From Promethearchaeia archaeon (GTDB lineage: Archaea; Asgardarchaeota; Lokiarchaeia; Sigyniarchaeales; SOKP01), in assembly GCA_046497275.1 (NCBI GenBank), contig JAWOFX010000070.1, forward strand, positions 1 through 8,429: a DNA stretch of 8,429 nucleotides, written 5' to 3'. Both the position numbers and the translations under genes were made by a program. Below are positions 1 through 8,429 of the stretch, one piece after another (position 1 is the stretch's first letter; each line of letters starts with the position of its first letter). The notes under the pieces are model-generated. The model was given only the letters and a program-made list of their open reading frames with translations, ran no database searches and was not told the DNA's origin.

Positions 1-1297
1 TTTTAATAGAATTGCCAATAAGATTTCTTATAGTGTTGAATTCTTGAATACTCTTCAAATACTCTTCTATTTCGGGAATATTTGCGCTTTTTAATAATTC
101 TCTAATCTTAGGGATTTTATCTAAGGAGGTTTTTATATTGATCAAATCCCTTGCATTTGTACGATTCACATAAGTAATACGATTAATATAACGTTCTAAG
201 TCTCCAACTACGCTTAATTCTTCTCTCAAATCCGATCGCAAAAAGATATCATCCTTAAATTTTTGTACAATATTTAGTCTATGGTTAATTTCATCAATCT
301 TTGTTAATGGTTGTAAAATTATTTTCTTAAGAAGACGGGCTCCCATAGGTGTTTCAGTGTGATTAAATACAGAAAATAGAGTAATATCTTTACCTTTTTC
401 CCATAACGATGTTATCAGTTCGAGATTTCTCTGGGTTGTATAATCTAAATGTAAAACATTTTTTTCTTTCAATAATTTAATTTTGAATATATTAGGTATT
501 AGATCTCTCTGTGTTTCTTTAAGAAATGCCAAAAGTCCTCCCGCGGCTTGAACTGCAACCTCAGAATCGTCCAATCCAAATCCTTTCAGATTGGATAGAT
601 TAAAATGTCTTTTAATGAGTTTATATGCTTGATCATACTCAAATGAATAATCATCATAGGTTTTCACAATTGCTTCGGTTATATCTGTCAAAAAAATGAA
701 TAATTTTTCATCTTTTTTTAAATTTGAAGGAATAATCAATTCTACAGGATTGAATCGAGCAAATAAACTGAGTAATTTTTCTATTGGATCTTTCTGATCA
801 TCTGAGTATTCTGCAGTAACAAATTCACCTGTAGATATATCTGCGAACGAACATCCAAATTCTCCGCTTTCCTTCACAAGAGATGCGATATAATTATTTT
901 CAGAGGAGTTCAGCATATCTGCTTCAGTAATCGTTCCAGGTGATAATATTCTTACAACCCCTCGTTTTACAATTCTTCCCTTCACTGTTGACGGATCTTC
1001 TAATTGCTCAACTAGTACTACCGTCTCTCCCTTTTTCACCAAGTTATTCAAATATTGACCTGCGTGGTGAGGGATTCCGGCTAATGGATATTCATCATCC
1101 CCTACTTTCCGTTTGGTTAGAGTAATGCCTAATAGTTTTGACACCCTTATTGCATCATCATAAAAAAATTCATAAAAATCTCCCATTCTATAGGCGATGA
1201 GATGCTCTGAGTATTTTTTCTTGATACTCCACCAGTGGCGTATCATAGGTGTTGCGTTTTTAGGATCAAAATCCTCTATTGACTCGATATAGGTCAT
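1..1297 (-). CDS. mutS: DNA mismatch repair protein MutS (MutS1 type), N-terminal 432 codons; continues beyond the left edge
   Basis: ATG at 1297-1295; open frame to the window edge. Translation MTYIESIEDFDPKNATPMIRHWWSIKKKYSEHLIAYRMGDFYEFFYDDA...PLAGIPHHA...VEQLEDP...VKRGVVRILSPGT (domain I with the GDFYE mismatch-recognition motif), ...LDYTTQRNLEL...TPMGARLLKK...GDLERYINRI (domain III). Not in the ORF track, presumably because its stop lies outside the window. Confidence 0.97.
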   Translation of the reverse strand, partial: MTYIESIEDFDPKNATPMIRHWWSIKKKYSEHLIAYRMGDFYEFFYDDAIRVSKLLGITLTKRKVGDDEYPLAGIPHHAGQYLNNLVKKGETVVLVEQLEDPSTVKGRIVKRGVVRILSPGTITEADMLNSSENNYIASLVKESGEFGCSFADISTGEFVTAEYSDDQKDPIEKLLSLFARFNPVELIIPSNLKKDEKLFIFLTDITEAIVKTYDDYSFEYDQAYKLIKRHFNLSNLKGFGLDDSEVAVQAAGGLLAFLKETQRDLIPNIFKIKLLKEKNVLHLDYTTQRNLELITSLWEKGKDITLFSVFNHTETPMGARLLKKIILQPLTKIDEINHRLNIVQKFKDDIFLRSDLREELSVVGDLERYINRITYVNRTNARDLINIKTSLDKIPKIRELLKSANIPEIEEYLKSIQEFNTIRNLIGNSIK

Positions 1298-1371
1298 GGA
1301 AACTTATTAAAAAAATATTGAGTCTTCTAAATTAATTATTATTTTAAGAACAATAAAATGATTCTAATAAT

Positions 1372-1460
1372 TCTTATTGTTAGAATTTTAATAATTTAAA
1401 AACTAAAAAGGCGTTCTAATATTTAAGTTCCTTCACTCATCAAATTTATTAAAAATTGAT
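1372..1460. repeat. Degenerate direct repeat, copy A (~89 bp; partner at 6097-6183)
   Basis: TCTTATTGTTAG-aa-TTTTAATAAT-t-TAAAA-ac-TAAAAAG-6nt-TAATATTTAA-gttcctt-CACTCA-tca-AATT-tat-TAAAAATTGAT is collinear with copy B; 67/89 identities by hand alignment. Confidence 0.85.
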
Positions 1461-1470
1461 AATGAATCTC

Positions 1471-3075
1471 TTAAAATTCATCCAATCTCTTAACATTACG
1501 AGTTCGATAATCAAATTGTGGGAAGTTAGGTAATTTTTTTCCGGTTTTTTTCTCATATTCATCAATAATAAAGTCTTGCATCTTATCATAATCAACAAAA
1601 TCAGCTCTTCCATCAAAATCATAGGGTATTATAATTAAAGTGACACCTTCTTTTTCAGATGCCCATTTTTTTAGGTAATCAAATTCTTGTTGAATTTCTA
1701 ATTTTTTAAGACCATAAATAGGAATATAATGTTGAATTCCATTAAATTCAAAAGCAAGCCTTAATCTCTCATTATATCCATCTAGTTCCAATCTATGATT
1801 TGTCAATCTTTTGAGCCATTTAGGTGAAGATTTAGGGAATTTCAGATCAAAAATGGACTCAAAAAAATATCTTGCTATTCTTTCACTTGTTCCCTCCGCA
1901 CATTTGGGGCACCATCTGCCTAATCTTATGTTTGAATATGTAGATAACCATGGTTTGTGTTTCTCTCCGCATTGCCATAGGAAGTGAGTTGTGGATTTGC
2001 TAGAATACTTTTCAAATTCTTTTTTTGATGTACAAAATTTTCCTGGTTTTCCTATTGACTCTATTCCTCTTTTTCTTGCCATAGATACCATATCATTATA
2101 AGTTAAAGGAGTATTGCTAGCACATGCTGGACACCACGATCCATAAAGAATACTATCTGGTCTTGCTAACCAAGGTGGATGTCCCTCAATTCCACATGAC
2201 CATTTAAATTTGGCTCTATTGGGAAAAGTAATCTCCTTAAGTTTTCTATATTCTTCTAGACTTGTCAATAACTCACCTGAAATATTATTTTCTTCACACC
2301 CTCTTCTAATAGCTAATTTTTTTAATCTTTCATACGTCCATGGCTTCTTCTCTCTTTCTTCAGGACACCAGCTCCCCTGGTTAATTTTTGCTGGAGTTAA
2401 CCAGAATTTATGACCCTTTTCACACACCCATAGAAATTCGGTGTGACTTATATACCCTTCAGTTTTAGCGGAATCAAAATCCTCTTTAGTGCTTAGTAAT
2501 TTACCTTTTTTCGATTTTGCGATTCTTTTAAGATCACTATATGTTAATATTGAATTTTTTATACGTAAGCTAAAGTCATCCAGCGATTTCCTGAATTCTT
2601 TAATTAAGTTTGATATAAATTCCTTTAAATAAGATTTCGATAATCCTAGATCCAAGCCTGAAGAACTTAATTCTGATACAACATTTTTTATTATTATTCT
2701 TTGTTTTGAATCATTAAGAGACATAACATATTGAGTTATCCTTAAAAGACTATGGAGATAAACCAAAATAGGTCTTCTAAATTCTTTAATCTTGAGCTTT
2801 TCAAATAATTCCTTTAATTCTGTAATTTTTTTGATATCTTTTTTAAGTAAAAATGATATCGATTTTTTAATTATAGTTCTATTTGATGCATTACTATATT
2901 CAGAAGATAATCTATAAAACATTTCTGCCAAAATAAGTCTTAATTTTCTAGGAAATTGAGTTATACACTCATCATCTTCAGAAATACGAATTAGATTTAC
3001 TTGATTGATATTGATTATATCATTTAATTTCTTTTCTCTTTCTCCATCATAGTCCTTATTCATTATGATACCCAT
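1471..3075 (-). CDS. Zinc-ribbon repeat protein with C-terminal Vsr/DUF559-like PD-(D/E)XK-superfamily endonuclease domain (534 aa; alternative start at 3063)
   Basis: Three internal repeats TY..(L/M)...A...G...F.W.C...H..W......I..G.WCP.(C/E) at about 2547-2356, 2343-2122 and 2109-1900. They are followed by SE398...LELD432GYN...AFE443FNGIQH449Y, matching the E...D...E.(D/N)G..H signature of Vsr-like nucleases. Confidence 0.8.
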   Translation of the reverse strand: MGIIMNKDYDGEREKKLNDIININQVNLIRISEDDECITQFPRKLRLILAEMFYRLSSEYSNASNRTIIKKSISFLLKKDIKKITELKELFEKLKIKEFRRPILVYLHSLLRITQYVMSLNDSKQRIIIKNVVSELSSSGLDLGLSKSYLKEFISNLIKEFRKSLDDFSLRIKNSILTYSDLKRIAKSKKGKLLSTKEDFDSAKTEGYISHTEFLWVCEKGHKFWLTPAKINQGSWCPEEREKKPWTYERLKKLAIRRGCEENNISGELLTSLEEYRKLKEITFPNRAKFKWSCGIEGHPPWLARPDSILYGSWCPACASNTPLTYNDMVSMARKRGIESIGKPGKFCTSKKEFEKYSSKSTTHFLWQCGEKHKPWLSTYSNIRLGRWCPKCAEGTSERIARYFFESIFDLKFPKSSPKWLKRLTNHRLELDGYNERLRLAFEFNGIQHYIPIYGLKKLEIQQEFDYLKKWASEKEGVTLIIIPYDFDGRADFVDYDKMQDFIIDEYEKKTGKKLPNFPQFDYRTRNVKRLDEF

Positions 3076-3127
3076 TTCTTAATTTCAATAAAAATATTTA
3101 AGCTCATTTTTTTCATCTTAAGCTTAT

Positions 3128-3175
3128 TACAAAGGTTTTATAAGATATTTCTATGGAGTTTACAAAACCTTTCTA
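3128..3175. promoter_or_regulatory. 16-bp imperfect inverted repeat (operator or back-to-back BRE/TATA-like elements)
   Basis: TACAAAGGTTTTATAA (3128-3143) and TTACAAAACCTTTCTA (3160-3175) are 14/16 complementary with a 16-bp spacer, in the divergent intergenic region. Confidence 0.5.
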
Positions 3176-3191
3176 TAATAACAAATAGATT

Positions 3192-3239
3192 TTTATATAT
3201 TTAAATATTTTCTATGTATTATCCATAAATCATAGAAAA
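3192..3239 (+). promoter_or_regulatory. Archaeal TATA box followed by a 9-bp inverted repeat over the expected transcription start of the AbrB-like gene
   Basis: TTTATATA at 3192-3199; TTTTCTATG (3208-3216) and CATAGAAAA (3231-3239) form a perfect 9-bp inverted repeat with a 14-bp spacer. Confidence 0.45.
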
Positions 3240-3281
3240 CTTTAGTAAAACCTTTTTTACATCTTAATATTAGATAAGATA

Positions 3282-3455
3282 ATGACTGAAGAGGATAATG
3301 AAGATCTTCCACCTGCTGTTAGCTTTACTGCTCCGCCCTCAAAACATGGAGATTATTATATTTTTCATATACCGAATAAATTAATTAAATCTGGAGAAGT
3401 AAATCCTGAATATTACTATAAAGTAATGATTAAACCATTAAAGAGAAGAGAATAA
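3282..3455 (+). CDS. Small AbrB/MazE/SpoVT-like swapped-hairpin DNA-binding protein (57 aa)
   Basis: ATG 3282 to TAA 3455: MTEEDNEDLPPAVSFTAPPSKHGDYYIFHIPNKLIKSGEVNPEYYYKVMIKPLKRRE. The pattern beta(SFTA)-K.G-beta(YYIFHIP)-helix(NKLIKSG)-beta(YYYKVMIKP) fits the swapped-hairpin fold. Shorter than every ORF in the track, so probably below its length cutoff. Confidence 0.7.
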   Translation: MTEEDNEDLPPAVSFTAPPSKHGDYYIFHIPNKLIKSGEVNPEYYYKVMIKPLKRRE

Positions 3456-3626
3456 GTTTTTATAATCGCTAAAAGGTGTTATATCGAATTCTAAATCTAA
3501 ATTATGAAGTTCCTTTTTGATCTTCTTTATTTTTGAATAATCCTCAGTAAAGATTTCTATTATATAACTATTATTATAAAGATTGTCAATCTCATAACTA
3601 TCTTTTCTATTTTTCATCATTTTCAT
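3438..3626 (-). CDS. Hypothetical small protein (62 aa; start may be 3620 or 3617)
   Basis: ORF track. Protein-like beta-alpha-beta pattern (YIIEIFT / DYSKIKKIKKELHNL / LEFDIT) and an upstream TATA-like palindrome; no family recognised. Confidence 0.5.
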   Translation of the reverse strand: MKMMKNRKDSYEIDNLYNNSYIIEIFTEDYSKIKKIKKELHNLDLEFDITPFSDYKNLFSSL

Positions 3627-3638
3627 ATAATATGATTC

Positions 3639-3652
3639 TTAAATATATTTAA
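3639..3652 (-). promoter_or_regulatory. TATA-like perfect palindrome upstream of the 62-aa ORF
   Basis: TTAAATATATTTAA (14-bp palindrome) lies 13-26 nt upstream of ATG 3626 and 22-35 nt upstream of ATG 3617. Confidence 0.35.
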
Positions 3653-3744
3653 AGAAAAAATTCATCAAATTAACTATTTCTTTTACTTATTATGAAAAGA
3701 ATCGAAATTTAAAATTTTCTAATTTTAATAAAACCTTTTAAATA

Positions 3745-5988
3745 TTAGTTTTCTAATAGATTTTCAGAAAATGTATGAATTGTATTTACGACATCCTTAA
3801 AATATATAATATTTTTCTCTAAGATTTTTTTATTCAAATAGATTGGTTCCTCTGGAGGGGATGATGCAAAATTAAGAACAGGAGAATCAATTTTAGAATG
3901 GATTACTATTTTTCTCCATTTAAAAAAATTTTGCATTTCTTCAAATATATGAGTTTTTTCATAAATATTTCCAACTATTATATTATAGGCTATATTATAT
4001 GACCTTTTAAATTGGTTCCAATCTTGAAAATTAATTTTTCTTTCTTCAATTAGAATTTTAAAAATGGATTTCCCAGATTCCTCAGACTTCTTGATAATTC
4101 TCTCTTTTTGGCTTACAAATCTTTTTAATACACCATCATAATCAATTAAATTTTCTTTATTCTTAAGAGATTGTTCAAGTTCAAGAAATCTTCTTATCCC
4201 ATAGATCTCAAAGGCAGAGACCGTCATAACTATTATCTGTTGGTATATAATCACCTTAAATCTGTAATTGATCTTATATTTATTATTCAAACTAACGTAT
4301 TTAAGTAGCATTTCTATATTTTTTATTTTTTCATCAAAAATTTTCTTTGAATTCTTACTTCCAATTTCTATTATCTTTAGAATGCCAATTTTATTTAATA
4401 CGATTTCCTTGGGATCTATCTGTTTTGATTCATGGACATGATTAATAATTTTATTGATTATATTAATAAGATTTATTATATTTTCAGAATATTCTTTATC
4501 TTCCAATTTAATATTCAAATGGACAACTTGTTGCCTTAGATGTAATAATCTGTTAAGGATCCTTTTATATTGGTTTGGAATAATTTTATTCAAATCTAAA
4601 TTTAAGACACATAAATATACTTTAAATATCTCTTTTAAATCTTGAAAATTAATGAAATTCTTGTTAAAAAACACTTCTATTTCCGAGAGATCTTTTTTTA
4701 ACGCATGGTTTTTTATTTTCTTGACTTTGGTCTCCCTAATTAGTGATGGAATAAACTTATTATATAATTTTTTTAGATTAATATTATTATTCTGTTTTGC
4801 TATTTCTATTAACCTTTCTCTAAAATAAATTTCTAAACCCGTAACTAATATAACAATAATTTGTTTATATAGTATTTTTTTTAAATTTAAATCAATATTA
4901 TTTTTTTGAATTTGATTAATAATAATTAATATATTTTCAATTTTAAAATCAAAAAGTTCCTTTGCATCTGAGATAACTAAGATTTCTTGAGATATATTAC
5001 TCAAAATATTCCTAATTTCAGGAATATTATCTTTTGAGGCATAATATTCAACAGTTCCCTTGTCTGTAGGACTTTTATATCTATCAGAATTACTGCTTGG
5101 TTTTCGTAATAATTGGATAGAATTTATTATAAACGGTAACAGATTAAAAGAATTACTATATTTCTTTCTTAAAGTTTCAGTTTTGATATTCTTAATAATT
5201 AAATAGAAGGAGGCGAAACATTTAAGATAATAAGTTAATGCTTTCTTGTATTCTAGGGAATATTGATATGTTGAGGCAATATTAAACAAAATTTTTACCG
5301 AAAGTGGTTTAAAATTATTTTTTTTTGCCTTTTTTAAAGCACGGAATTGATAATCCAGAGCTTTCTGATGTTCATTTTTATTGCCATAGATATTACCAAT
5401 ATTAAGTAATGATCTACATATACCGTGAATATCATTCATATTTTCAAAAATATCTAATGCTTTTTTTTGATATCGGAGTGCCTTATCTAATTCCCCTTTT
5501 TCTCTGAAAATGTTTGCTATATTGGAATAAGCAAGAGCTAAATTCTTTTTTTCAATCTTAAGATTATTAACTCCTTTCTCTTTGAAAAATTCTATTCTCT
5601 GTTCCTTTATTTCAATTTCTATTAGATGATACTTCTGAGCAGATTCTAATTTTTCTTTAGATTTTTCCAACCACCTCTTCATCTTTAAGTTCTGGAATTC
5701 CGCTTGAAAATTTACCGCTATACAACCATAAATATCAGAAATTCCCTTAGAATTCTTCAATTCCTTAAAAATATCCAAAGCTTTATTATAGTATTCATGA
5801 GCGGTTTGAAAATTCCCAACACGAGAATAAACGTTCCCAAATATTTTATATTGATGAGCAATAGAAATTTTATTTCCATTATTTTTGGCTTTTTGCAATA
5901 ATTCCCTTGCAAGATTTGTGGCTTTATCAAATTCTCCTTCCTTTATCCATAGTATAATTTTTTTATTTTCTTGATAAAACTCAGTCAT
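3745..5988 (-). CDS. TPR-repeat protein with two tandem C-terminal HEPN-like (RiboL-PSP-HEPN-like) domains, putative regulated RNase (747 aa)
   Basis: TPR motifs start at about aa 44, 151, 191 and 231 (e.g. ALAYSNIANIFREKGELDKALRYQKKALDIFENM). The C-terminal half is an internal duplication (aa ~340-521 and ~545-747) sharing FD.KI.NI, (L/I)Y.QIIV..V...EIY, INFQD and R-x4-H (R485QQVVH490; R692KIVIH697). Confidence 0.8.
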   Translation of the reverse strand: MTEFYQENKKIILWIKEGEFDKATNLARELLQKAKNNGNKISIAHQYKIFGNVYSRVGNFQTAHEYYNKALDIFKELKNSKGISDIYGCIAVNFQAEFQNLKMKRWLEKSKEKLESAQKYHLIEIEIKEQRIEFFKEKGVNNLKIEKKNLALAYSNIANIFREKGELDKALRYQKKALDIFENMNDIHGICRSLLNIGNIYGNKNEHQKALDYQFRALKKAKKNNFKPLSVKILFNIASTYQYSLEYKKALTYYLKCFASFYLIIKNIKTETLRKKYSNSFNLLPFIINSIQLLRKPSSNSDRYKSPTDKGTVEYYASKDNIPEIRNILSNISQEILVISDAKELFDFKIENILIIINQIQKNNIDLNLKKILYKQIIVILVTGLEIYFRERLIEIAKQNNNINLKKLYNKFIPSLIRETKVKKIKNHALKKDLSEIEVFFNKNFINFQDLKEIFKVYLCVLNLDLNKIIPNQYKRILNRLLHLRQQVVHLNIKLEDKEYSENIINLINIINKIINHVHESKQIDPKEIVLNKIGILKIIEIGSKNSKKIFDEKIKNIEMLLKYVSLNNKYKINYRFKVIIYQQIIVMTVSAFEIYGIRRFLELEQSLKNKENLIDYDGVLKRFVSQKERIIKKSEESGKSIFKILIEERKINFQDWNQFKRSYNIAYNIIVGNIYEKTHIFEEMQNFFKWRKIVIHSKIDSPVLNFASSPPEEPIYLNKKILEKNIIYFKDVVNTIHTFSENLLEN

Positions 5989-6036
5989 AATTTTTTGGAT
6001 TAATTTATCGCTTTTTTTCCAGTTTTTGTTCTTAAG

Positions 6037-6052
6037 ATTTTTTATAAAAAAT
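6037..6052. promoter_or_regulatory. Palindromic TATA-like element upstream of the TPR-HEPN gene
   Basis: ATTTTTTATAAAAAAT is a 16-bp perfect palindrome containing TTTATAAA, about 50-65 nt upstream of ATG 5988. Confidence 0.3.
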
Positions 6053-6096
6053 TATCTTCATAATAATTATATTTTTTACGATATTTAAAAAAGAAC

Positions 6097-6183
6097 TCTT
6101 ATTGTTAGGTTTTTAATAATCTAAAATTAAAAAGTAAGATTAATATTTAAAATTCCACACTCAATGAATTAACTAAAATTGAT
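6097..6183. repeat. Degenerate direct repeat, copy B (~87 bp; partner at 1372-1460)
   Basis: TCTTATTGTTAG-gt-TTTTAATAAT-c-TAAAA-t-TAAAAAG-6nt-TAATATTTAA-aattcca-CACTCA-atg-AATT-aac-TAAAATTGAT is collinear with copy A. Confidence 0.85.
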
Positions 6184-6211
6184 TCATCAAGAAAATCTTT
6201 TTCAAATATTT

Positions 6212-7127
6212 TTACTTGGAATTAATACATCTTTGAACTGTTTTCCTAATAGTTTCCTCTAACTCACCACCACTATATTGTAATTCTTTTTGGCTTGAGG
6301 TGGGATCAAAAAAGAATTCTTGAGATTGAATATCTCGGAAAAGATATTTATAATTTAACCCAGCTTCTTTTCCCTCTCTCGATTCTTTCCAACGAAGATA
6401 TGATCCTAATATAGTTCCTATCCAAACGGGGAGAATTTTTATCTTTTTATATATTCCCATCTCATCTAACATAATTTTTATCCACTCAGTCCATTTAACA
6501 TTTTTATCTCCAATAGTATAACGCTTTCCACCTTTTCCATATTCTATAGCACCAACTATTGCTTCTGCAACATGGTCAACAGTAATCATGTTTGAACCTC
6601 CTTTAAAGAAGAAGATATACAGTTTCATTTTCTTTAATCTATTTACAATAATATCTTTCCAAATTGGCATCCTTACAGGATGGGTTCCAAATATATAAGG
6701 CAGTTCCATGATCATAACATCCATTTGATTACCACCAATAGCTATACATTTTTCAGCTTGCTCAACTCTTGATCTTATATAAGGATGCTTTTCTTTCAAT
6801 TTTAATTCTGGTCGCTCTCTTTCAAAATAGGCGAAATATGAATTACAAATCGCGCATTTTTTTACTCCTGCCTTTCTAGCTGCTCTAACAACTTTCTCAC
6901 ATGCTTCTACTAATCTTTTATGGTAAAACTCATAAGCTGGTGCTTCTGGAGTGATACGATCGTCAGGACCGACTGCATAAATCATCGCATCATATCCTCG
7001 AAATAAATTGACTAATTTCTCATATTCTACATTAAAAAGATCAATATATAAATTATTAACCTCTTTAATAGGAAACCATCCCTCTAATTTACAATCTTCC
7101 TGTGCCCCCACATACAAATACTTTCAT
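6212..7127 (-). pseudogene. NAD(P)-dependent epimerase/dehydratase (extended/atypical SDR) disrupted by an N-terminal deletion and frameshift (or an assembly error)
   Basis: ATG at 7127 gives MKVFVCGGTG-RL-stop (TAA 7091-7089), the Rossmann beta-A and glycine motif. The body of the enzyme (YDAMIYAVG, HPYIRSR, ELPYIFG, VDHVAEAIVGA) is in another frame, the tracked TTG-started ORF 7117-6212. The alphaA-betaB segment is absent between the two. Confidence 0.8.
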
Positions 7128-7296
7128 TATAATATCACTCTATAATTATTATTTGAAATTAATTATTAGTTAAATTTTGCTTTATTTTTATTAGCAGTGG
7201 TTTTATAACCTCTCAAAATCCCTTATAGAAATTTAGAAATTAATTTAAAACTTAAAACATATCATACCTTAAATTATAAGTTAGGTTAATTATCTT

Positions 7297-8082
7297 ATGA
7301 ATGAAGATTTAATCCTATTCGAAACTAAGAATAAAGTCGCAATAATTACGATCAACAGACCAGATAAGGCGAATGCAGTTAATGTTGACATGCTTAGAAA
7401 AATTCACACATATCTTCAAGAGGCCGATAAAGATGAAAGAGCGAAGATTATTCTATTTAAAAGCTTAGGTGAAAGATTCTTTTCTGCGGGCTATGACTTG
7501 AAAGAAGTAGCTGGTAATCCCGAAAATGTGAAATTGATTACAGAATGGGGAAGAAAAGTTAATGAGACAATATTATTTCTGAAAAAACCTGTTATTTCTC
7601 AAATCCAAGGTGCTGCGATTGGTTTTGGAGTACTATTAATTCTTGCATCTGACTTAACAGTTTTCGCCGACAGACCAAGAGATGAGTTATATATCCAGCT
7701 TCCCGAGCTCTTTATCAATGCTTTCCCCCAAACAGGTGCCACTCTTATGCCTCTTATGGCATTTGGTATAAAATACGCAAAAAATATTTTATTTACCAAT
7801 AGAAAAATTGGTTTAGAAGAATTGCGTAATATTAACTTTCCAACTAAAATAGTTCCTTTTGAATTGCTTGAAGAGAAGACTTTTGAATATGCCAAAGAAT
7901 TGACGAAATTAAAAATGGAATTCATATTTACTGCAAAATCGATGATGACCATCATGAATAAAACCTATATAAGATCTTGTTTTGATTTAGAAGATGAATG
8001 TGGCGCCTATGCATATGGACCGAAGAAACCTATGAGTGATTTACATGAATTTATAAAAAATCTCTATAAAAAGTATCCATAA
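7297..8082 (+). CDS. Enoyl-CoA hydratase/isomerase (crotonase) family protein (261 aa)
   Basis: VAIITINRPDKANAV, FSAGYDL (oxyanion loop), KPVISQIQGAAIGFG...LASDL, LPE. Confidence 0.93.
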   Translation: MNEDLILFETKNKVAIITINRPDKANAVNVDMLRKIHTYLQEADKDERAKIILFKSLGERFFSAGYDLKEVAGNPENVKLITEWGRKVNETILFLKKPVISQIQGAAIGFGVLLILASDLTVFADRPRDELYIQLPELFINAFPQTGATLMPLMAFGIKYAKNILFTNRKIGLEELRNINFPTKIVPFELLEEKTFEYAKELTKLKMEFIFTAKSMMTIMNKTYIRSCFDLEDECGAYAYGPKKPMSDLHEFIKNLYKKYP

Positions 8083-8164
8083 ATGAAAATAATAGCTTCA
8101 TAACGTTTTTTTGAGAGTTTAAACAGTAATTTTATCAAGTAATAAAGAAAATTTTTATTCTCCC

Positions 8165-8175
8165 TTTCTTTTTTT
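8165..8175 (+). terminator. Possible archaeal oligo-T terminator between the two crotonase genes
   Basis: TTTCTTTTTTT about 85 nt after the stop at 8082; weak evidence in an AT-rich genome. Confidence 0.25.
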
Positions 8176-8202
8176 AATATAATCTGAATTCTAGCCTTAG
8201 GA

Positions 8203-8429
8203 ATGGAAAAAATGAATAATAATGAAATTATTTTATATGAGAAAAAGCGAAATATTGCGATCATTACCCTAAATCGTCCCGATATGGCTCATGCATTCAA
8301 TTGGGAATTAATGAAAGGATTGTATGATCATCTAATAAAAGCTCATGAGGAAGAAAAAGTGAAATGTATTCTTTTAAAAAGTACAGGCAAAAAAGTATTT
8401 AGTTCTGGAATTGATATTCGAGCTGCCTC
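8203..8429 (+). CDS. Second enoyl-CoA hydratase/isomerase family protein, N-terminal part (start 8203 or 8212); runs off the right edge
   Basis: MEKMNNNEIILYEKKRNIAIITLNRPDMAHAFNWELMKGLYDHLIKAHEEEKVKCILLKSTGKKVFSSGIDIRAA is a crotonase N-terminus with the FSSGID oxyanion loop. Not in the ORF track. Confidence 0.92.
   Translation, partial: MEKMNNNEIILYEKKRNIAIITLNRPDMAHAFNWELMKGLYDHLIKAHEEEKVKCILLKSTGKKVFSSGIDIRAA

Follow-up and report, generated by a model that had tools for sequence, protein, structure and literature searches.

A degenerate direct repeat upstream of mutS in a Lokiarchaeial genome probably represents two alleles of the mutS control region, one of them imported with a gene cassette

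In the genome of a Lokiarchaeial archaeon (Promethearchaeia archaeon, GenBank assembly GCA_046497275.1), the mismatch-repair gene mutS is preceded by an accessory block of genes that is bracketed by a degenerate direct repeat, with copy 1 next to mutS and copy 2 beyond the block, next to a gene for an SDR-like protein. All positions refer to the window, that is, the whole stretch of DNA analysed, which is the entire 8,429-bp contig JAWOFX010000070.1 (our C162). We propose that the repeat consists of two alleles of the mutS control region (~100-170 nt), one of them resident and the other imported together with a foreign two-gene cassette, and we estimate the probability of this reading at about 0.7. 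The repeat is orthologous to the region upstream of mutS in related genomes, a close relative carries the empty site with a single copy, identity to this relative changes in two steps on either side of the diverged sequence, and the pattern is repeated in another genus.

Results

The repeat occurs in two copies and nowhere else in the genome

A degenerate direct repeat around the block had been described in an earlier note made from the letters alone, and every block of matching letters named there was found in its place. Our repeat scan pairs 1366-1408 with 6091-6133 at 81% identity, and BLAST aligns the core and right part of copy 1 (1366-1462) with those of copy 2 (6091-6185) at 75% identity over 95 nt, the longest exact run common to both being 12 nt. 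When the two full intergenic regions are aligned locally, the score is 83, compared with 28.4 ± 4.6 and a maximum of 50 in 2000 dinucleotide shuffles, that is, 12 standard deviations above them, and the earlier observation is thus confirmed. Core and right part alone score 72 versus 21 ± 3.6, a value as high as which was given by 0 of 3000 shuffles. Collinear similarity further leftward, to 1304 and 6039, is marginal (30 versus 19.6 ± 3.4; 40 of 3000 shuffles as high). The distance from the end of copy 1 to the stop codon of the 1471-3075 gene is 5-10 nt, and from the end of copy 2 to the SDR-like stop codon it is 20-29 nt; a short hairpin is possible after the upstream stop codon in either copy, but the registers differ.

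The two copies are reciprocal best matches in Smith-Waterman comparisons against 38,348 genome windows of 400 nt on both strands, with a score of 83 for the pair and 54 for the next best match of copy 1. Searches of the whole genome with nhmmer, using single copies and a two-copy profile, together with BLAST and exact-motif scans, gave a copy number of two without any third, and no third copy was detected in the stretch 7118-7296 of the window. A candidate on contig C130 (score 70) was rejected because its alignment is gappy, the core is absent and there is no match to copy 1. Rfam covariance models gave no match to the repeat at E up to 1, and its predicted RNA folding on both strands was no better than that of shuffles (z -1.0 to +0.7).

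Signs of a mobile element were also sought. The repeat scan found no terminal inverted repeats at the ends of the block, and Pfam, NCBIfam and PADLOC scans found no integrase, recombinase or transposase domain in the open reading frames (ORFs) of 1471-5988, in agreement with what had been noted earlier for integrases; the output of PADLOC was limited to a generic TPR match and a weak TniQ-like zinc-finger match. No flanking repeats were present at the two other DUF4379 genes of the genome.

The repeat belongs to the region upstream of mutS

In its full extent, copy 1 is the complete intergenic region upstream of mutS (1298-1470, minus strand), in which we distinguish a left, mutS-proximal part (1298-1363), a conserved core (1364-1397) and a right part (1398-1466). 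It aligns with the mutS-upstream regions of the relatives G002, G004, G017 and G009, the scores being 92-100 for the first three. In G002, G004 and G005, the species representatives nearest to the window's genome, and likewise in G017 and G022, mutS and the first of the enoyl-CoA hydratase (ECH) genes are direct divergent neighbours about 200 bp apart, and it is this divergent intergenic region that the repeat matches in several relatives. G009 (locus L046) is without ~51 bp of the right part, opposite window 1398-1448, a part that copy 1, copy 2, G002 and G004 keep.

The core begins with an imperfect palindrome, CTAAYAAT-N4-ATTRTTAG (1364-1383), a pattern with a single occurrence in the genome, and continues with an A/T-rich, TATA-like run (1386-1395); its consensus across relatives is TAAYTCTWATTRTTA..TTTTTAATAA. 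Orthologues of mutS are present in 40 of the 41 genomes searched, the window's own counted in, and in 15 of the 20 loci examined in relatives, which span many genera, the core lies 48-78 nt (mostly 60-78) upstream of the mutS start regardless of the neighbouring gene; in G012, the best core match lies 192 nt upstream. Because this position upstream of mutS holds whatever gene adjoins, the core belongs to mutS. An A/T-rich box at a conserved distance from the gene is what an archaeal promoter (TATA box and B recognition element) would have, and the core is probably the promoter/operator of mutS.

A close relative carries the empty site

A scan of metagenome contigs for the core pattern identified a close relative, hereafter REL (contig Ga0102944_1000032), which was examined over 20.8 kb; another sample has a contig of the same kind, likewise from JGI, which is identical to it throughout the 3.9 kb compared, a stretch that begins in the 5' part of mutS and reaches the second of the ECH genes. 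The gene order in REL is mutS, a 198-nt region with a single copy of the element, a 76-codon 3' remnant of the SDR-like gene, and ECH, and no homologue of the TPR or DUF4379 genes of the cassette occurs within the 20.8 kb. Synteny thus provides the empty site that the earlier note had predicted, with one repeat between SDR and mutS, save that the SDR-like gene is there only as a remnant. Copy 2 is 88% identical to REL over 95 nt and 94% (84/89 nt) in the best stretch. Such an intact empty site in a close relative, with the cassette present in one genome and absent from the other, is what an import anchored at mutS would leave.

Among the seven genomes of the genus that were examined together with REL and L122, the cassette occurs only in the window's genome, and its presence or absence separates genomes whose mutS genes are 92.5% identical. 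This does not agree with the old, domesticated event that had been deduced in the earlier note from the ~25% divergence of the copies; because the copies would be two alleles, that divergence would measure the distance between donor and resident, not an age. Joints of an empty site or excised circle, from near 1400 to 6130, were not found in four public runs, a search that proves nothing since it covered contigs only.

REL (L120, 9452-10000) has also undergone a separate loss of 724 bp, which took the 5' two-thirds of the SDR-like gene as well as some of the intergenic sequence on the ECH side. When aligned, the flanks of this deletion overlap by ~9 nt, so that microhomology may have mediated it.

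Two identity steps delimit the diverged sequence

The mutS gene of the window (2-1297, minus strand) is 92.5% identical to REL over nt 73-1296, and the ECH side of the locus is 91.8% identical. Between these flanks, identity to REL is 76.4% in mutS nt 1-72 (1226-1297, minus strand), 67% in the left part of copy 1 and 70% in its core and right part. The maximum chi-square change point within mutS falls at nt 72 (window position 1225), and 0 of 300 permutations gave one as strong; the mismatch rate to REL is 7.5% beyond nt 72 versus 23.6% in nt 1-72 (Fisher p = 4e-5). This diverged tract of coding sequence would have been transferred together with copy 1 and the cassette.

The second step lies at the far end of the block. 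The leader of the TPR gene (5989-6090, minus strand; X in what follows) shows 52% identity to the mutS-proximal part of the REL region, which is chance level, and the joint at ~6085-6091 abuts the left edge of the conserved core of copy 2. X would accordingly form part of the diverged, imported allele. Similarity between X and the left part of copy 1 is weak (p about 0.013). The possibility that the TPR leader contains a remnant of mutS coding sequence was discarded, given that the alignment score equals the shuffle mean.

Copy 1 resembles another genus, where the same gene adjoins mutS

Over shared columns, copy 1 is closest to the corresponding region of G009, which belongs to another genus (76%), followed by the regions of the same genus (67-69%) and by copy 2 (61%). 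Characters of the type found in G009, G004 and G017 occur in its left part and in mutS nt 1-72. The 3' part of the DUF4379 gene is 82-85% identical at the DNA level to a fragment in G009, the corresponding value for mutS being 71%, and the two genomes are collinear from the gene through the upstream region into mutS, apart from the 51-bp gap in G009. Indeed, the close members of this DUF4379 orthogroup (at least 67% identity) are directly upstream of mutS in three cases out of three, in three genera (the window's genome G000, G009 and G023).

The pair formed by G023 and its congener G013 offers an independent view of the same site. G023 carries the DUF4379 gene and G013 is without it; the far side of the insertion is nearly identical in both, and their mutS genes are 64% identical in nt 1-156 and 93% identical beyond, a contrast reached in 0 of 500 permutations. 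The divergence step inside the anchor gene, as import would produce it, is therefore replicated. No duplicate of the resident region was found in G023, nor a second copy of the element in any of the relatives with other insertions (G001, G003, G009, G015 and G023).

The cassette encodes a Vsr-like protein and a TPR protein

The gene next to copy 1 (1471-3075, minus strand) encodes a protein of 534 aa that has three treble-clef zinc fingers of the DUF4379 type and, at its C terminus, a Vsr-like domain of the PD-(D/E)XK fold (residues ~393-513, DNA 1537-1899). The AlphaFold model of this domain (pLDDT 83) has as its best structural match the catalytic domain of the homing endonuclease I-Bth0305I (Z 8.4; the alignment covers 97 of 98 residues at 21% identity). 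Vsr itself follows with Z 7.8; all top rows are PD-(D/E)XK folds, Z values near 8 being borderline for the tool. A Foldseek search of the domain against the PDB gave nothing significant (E = 0.7), sequence searches assigned the protein to no nuclease family, and its structural look-alikes in the Atlas, which are mostly viral, carry DUF559 or DUF723. Five residues (D, E, Q, H and another D) do not vary among 13 homologues, and the acidic position of the Vsr-type 'xDG' motif is N or Q in this family. The model supports at the fold level that the protein may be a nuclease, and the name nuclease given to it earlier holds to that extent and not as a sequence-family match. The DUF4379 family is multi-copy and patchy, with matches in 45 of 121 family genomes, up to 8 matches in each and many with internal stop codons, a picture that resembles what is expected of selfish genes.

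The second gene of the cassette (3745-5988, minus strand) encodes a 747-aa protein with TPR families of Pfam in its N-terminal part. In four of five other Lokiarchaeia contigs (L087, L088, L089 and L092), its homologues (41-45% identity) adjoin a DUF4379 gene in tandem or convergent orientation; because the pair is conserved elsewhere, the TPR and DUF4379 genes form a cassette unit. The mutS-upstream element was not found ahead of these TPR homologues. The C-terminal part of the TPR protein gives RiboL-PSP HEPN-like matches in the Atlas (TM 0.5-0.63), a weak lead towards a possible HEPN-like domain.

Throughout the family, the stretch ahead of mutS is a hotspot with varied contents. The cargo found there (L039-L058, L085) includes an NTPase with an SDR-like protein, an SPFH protein with a double-zinc-ribbon protein, and ThiF with a 1196-aa orphan; in further genomes it is a metallo-beta-lactamase-fold protein, an endonuclease/exonuclease/phosphatase protein, a 724-aa orphan, or nothing. 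The SDR-like gene of the window is accessory as well: it occurs in 5 of 121 family genomes, a count that takes in the window's genome, and is located at the mutS site in G000, G001, G003 and REL (as the remnant). Scans of metagenome and genome contigs based on this gene brought nothing new.

Discussion

How could two alleles of one control region come to lie side by side? We suggest that the source was another Lokiarchaeial lineage in which the DUF4379 gene was already directly upstream of mutS. The incoming allele would have comprised mutS nt 1-72, copy 1, the DUF4379/Vsr-like gene, the small ORFs and the TPR gene with its leader to ~6090. One crossover would have taken place near nt 72-90 of mutS, where the gene is conserved, and the other joint would have formed at the left edge of the resident core. 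Import would thus have been facilitated by homology, the far end being either illegitimate or, if the donor already had a second copy, homologous within the core. Copy 2 would be the resident allele, still joined to the SDR-like gene as it is in REL. In consequence, mutS would now be read from the control region that came in, and its former one, which lies ~100 nt upstream of the TPR start, may drive the TPR gene. That the block contains no integrase or transposase domain was counted for import by recombination. The earlier note had offered, as one of its options, a duplication of the SDR-mutS intergenic region by insertion or recombination; this option is largely borne out, in its accessory block and its one-repeat empty site, and two alleles side by side take the place of a duplication in situ.

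Several points weigh against this proposal. No near-identical donor allele was found, although G009 and G023 have the same linkage of gene and mutS, and the identity of the window to G009 and G004 reaches only 79-82% in mutS nt 1-72. Copy 2 is about equidistant from all relatives but REL. A crossover between sequences that differ by ~10-25% would be inefficient, and the marginal similarity between X and the left part of copy 1, if it is real, still requires an older duplication in the donor lineage. The core is a putative promoter by its conservation and position; RNA-library contigs cover parts of the cassette genes, and none is listed on copy 1 or copy 2. Finally, the event could have been a loss in REL and not a gain in the window's lineage, REL having given up the cassette through an 'empty' allele like that of G002, with the same breakpoints.

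Developed in full, this last alternative states that the common ancestor of the window's genome and REL had the cassette with both copies and that REL lost it by homologous replacement with a G002-like 'empty' allele, by way of crossovers in the core and near mutS nt 72. Being symmetrical, the breakpoints are by themselves blind to direction, and mutS nt 1-72 together with the mutS-proximal region of REL is indeed most similar to G002 and L122, at 84.7% compared with an average of 75-79% for the gene. Vertical descent, however, leads to the same expectation of a G002-type left part in REL; moreover, a loss costs one extra event, since a gain on the stem has to be followed by the loss in REL, and the restriction of the cassette to a single genome of the genus speaks against an ancestral presence. 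We consequently regard the reverse direction as unlikely.

A duplication in situ upon insertion of a mobile cassette, either as a long target duplication or by Campbell-type integration of a circle, would also account for copies that are direct, bracket the block and are unique in the genome, copy 2 having copy 1 as its best genomic match. The copies would then have diverged, through rapid change in copy 1 and at the 5' end of mutS. Nonetheless, it is copy 1, the one expected to be under mutS constraint, that is only 70% identical to REL, and copy 2 that is 94% identical; copy 1 is nearer to G009 than to copy 2; duplication of an intergenic region leaves the 72-nt divergence step in the mutS coding sequence unexplained; and neither integrase or transposase nor terminal inverted repeats are present, nor is there a second copy in G009 or G023, which have the same gene at the same site. 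This explanation appears improbable to us. Even weaker is the case for a dispersed functional element (a miniature inverted-repeat transposable element, a small RNA or a regulatory module), the other option of the earlier note, or for a chance resemblance of A/T-rich sequences, since, although one copy recovers the other genome-wide only at E = 0.5-0.95 in composition-corrected nhmmer searches, there are just two copies without Rfam match or folding signal, their score is far above both shuffles and all other genomic matches, and orthology to the mutS-upstream region together with the match of copy 2 to REL explains the similarity by descent, so that we consider it very improbable and, for this genome, refuted.

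What may have driven the import of the cassette? A tentative answer, which we hold with considerable doubt, is that the DUF4379/Vsr-like protein acts in Asgard archaea as a free-standing homing endonuclease and would cut alleles without the gene in or near the mutS 5' end or control region. It would spread between genera through break repair and drag along the TPR partner (possibly a HEPN protein), the promoter of mutS and 70-160 nt from the start of that gene, and the repeat would be the by-product of one imperfect homing event. The context is of the homing type, with an intergenic site beside a conserved gene, a patchy distribution and co-converted flanks. Free-standing homing endonuclease genes are known in phages, as in the seg and mob types of T4, and homing normally leaves the flank unduplicated. 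The modular DNA-binding fingers, the Vsr-like fold and the intergenic position beside a conserved gene recall such genes and the EDxHD Vsr-like enzyme I-Bth0305I (PDB 3r3p), as do the patchy occurrence with pseudogenes and the transfer of flanking tracts in two genus pairs. Unlike them, the 534-aa gene travels with a TPR partner and has N or Q in place of the 'xDG' acid, and it is known here from sequence and a structural model only.

The event itself would be of an ordinary and known class. Homology-facilitated illegitimate recombination, with one homologous anchor and one illegitimate joint, has been described in competent bacteria and in E. coli conjugation (PMC3240628). The locus analysed here shares with those cases the foreign DNA beside a conserved anchor gene, the divergence step within the anchor, the lack of an integrase and the resident sequence past the far joint; it differs in its host, an Asgard archaeon, from a group in which the process is not known to occur, and in the far joint, which is at the edge of a conserved 30-nt core and may be homologous. 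The E. coli mutS-rpoS intergenic region is likewise polymorphic and mosaic (PMC4209514), so that the region beside mutS is a hotspot with lineage-specific cargo in both, the comparison being only an analogy because it concerns another domain of life, the other side of the gene and other cargo. Among the type VI effector-immunity modules of Vibrio cholerae, those that come in reportedly displace those already present in sequence, and varied arrays of the resident genes stay behind (PMC5361080); the leftover here is a non-coding control region and not an orphan immunity gene. With attL and attR of integrative elements, the repeat has in common that direct copies bracket an accessory block. It differs from them in that an integrase is absent, the copies match at only 75% instead of fully, no tRNA gene forms the site and the copies would be of different origins.

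If our proposal is correct, an odd repeat becomes a dated and mechanistic footprint of gene flow among Asgard archaea: the import of a cassette anchored in a core gene, with both breakpoints placed within a few bases, an empty site and an independent replicate in another genus. It is this unusually clean documentation in an Asgard archaeon, and not the class of event, that distinguishes the locus. The promoter and the N-terminal coding part of a mismatch-repair gene would have been swapped together with the cargo, which could alter mutS expression in the recipients, and the locus yields a candidate homing-type nuclease and a natural pair of putative promoter alleles. Were the homing interpretation true, alleles of the Lokiarchaeial mismatch-repair gene would be reshuffled by a selfish nuclease.

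Other features of the window

The genome to which the window belongs (3.85 Mb, 30% G+C) encodes TBP, which marks its host as an archaeon, and a scan of the window for sigma-70 promoters and terminators is for that reason uninformative. A second public assembly, GCA_051746095.1, has the identical arrangement at 99.98% identity, and contigs from one DNA run span 639-1634. The 432 codons of mutS in the window, truncated by the contig end, match the Pfam families MutS_I, MutS_II and MutS_III. The window contig and the 39-kb contig of the second assembly (L086) stop at the identical base in mutS, past codon 432, where assembly seems to break, for example through strain variation or mosaic mutS alleles. 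Beyond copy 2 lie the SDR-like gene (6212-7117, minus strand), an NAD(P)-binding Rossmann-fold gene with weak NAD_binding_10 and HpnA-like matches, and the two ECH genes identified by Pfam (7297-8429, plus strand), which belong to the conserved backbone.

An RNA-library contig of 443 nt starts at 7274, which is 23 nt upstream of the ECH start codon and ~27 nt downstream of an A/T box at 7241-7251; its end is that of a contig and not a mapped transcript start. The RNA run X5 contains two low-depth joints, 5336/7175 and 6157/4867, of which 6157 falls within copy 2, and both are probably assembly chimeras.

Between the two cassette genes, there is a small ORF on the minus strand (3438-3626) and a 57-aa ORF on the plus strand (3282-3455), which has no family match in our scans and for which the second assembly has a gene call. 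The intergenic sequence inside the cassette (3131-3738) contains a 25-nt inverted repeat (3131-3155 and 3231-3255) and a cluster of the motif TAAAACCTTT, which is matched 8 times in the window versus 3.1 ± 1.6 expected. All three exact matches are within this interval (3131 on the minus strand, 3246 and 3729 on the plus strand), and near-exact ones are found at 3163 on the plus strand and 3472 on the minus strand. These sites may be binding sites of a putative regulator.

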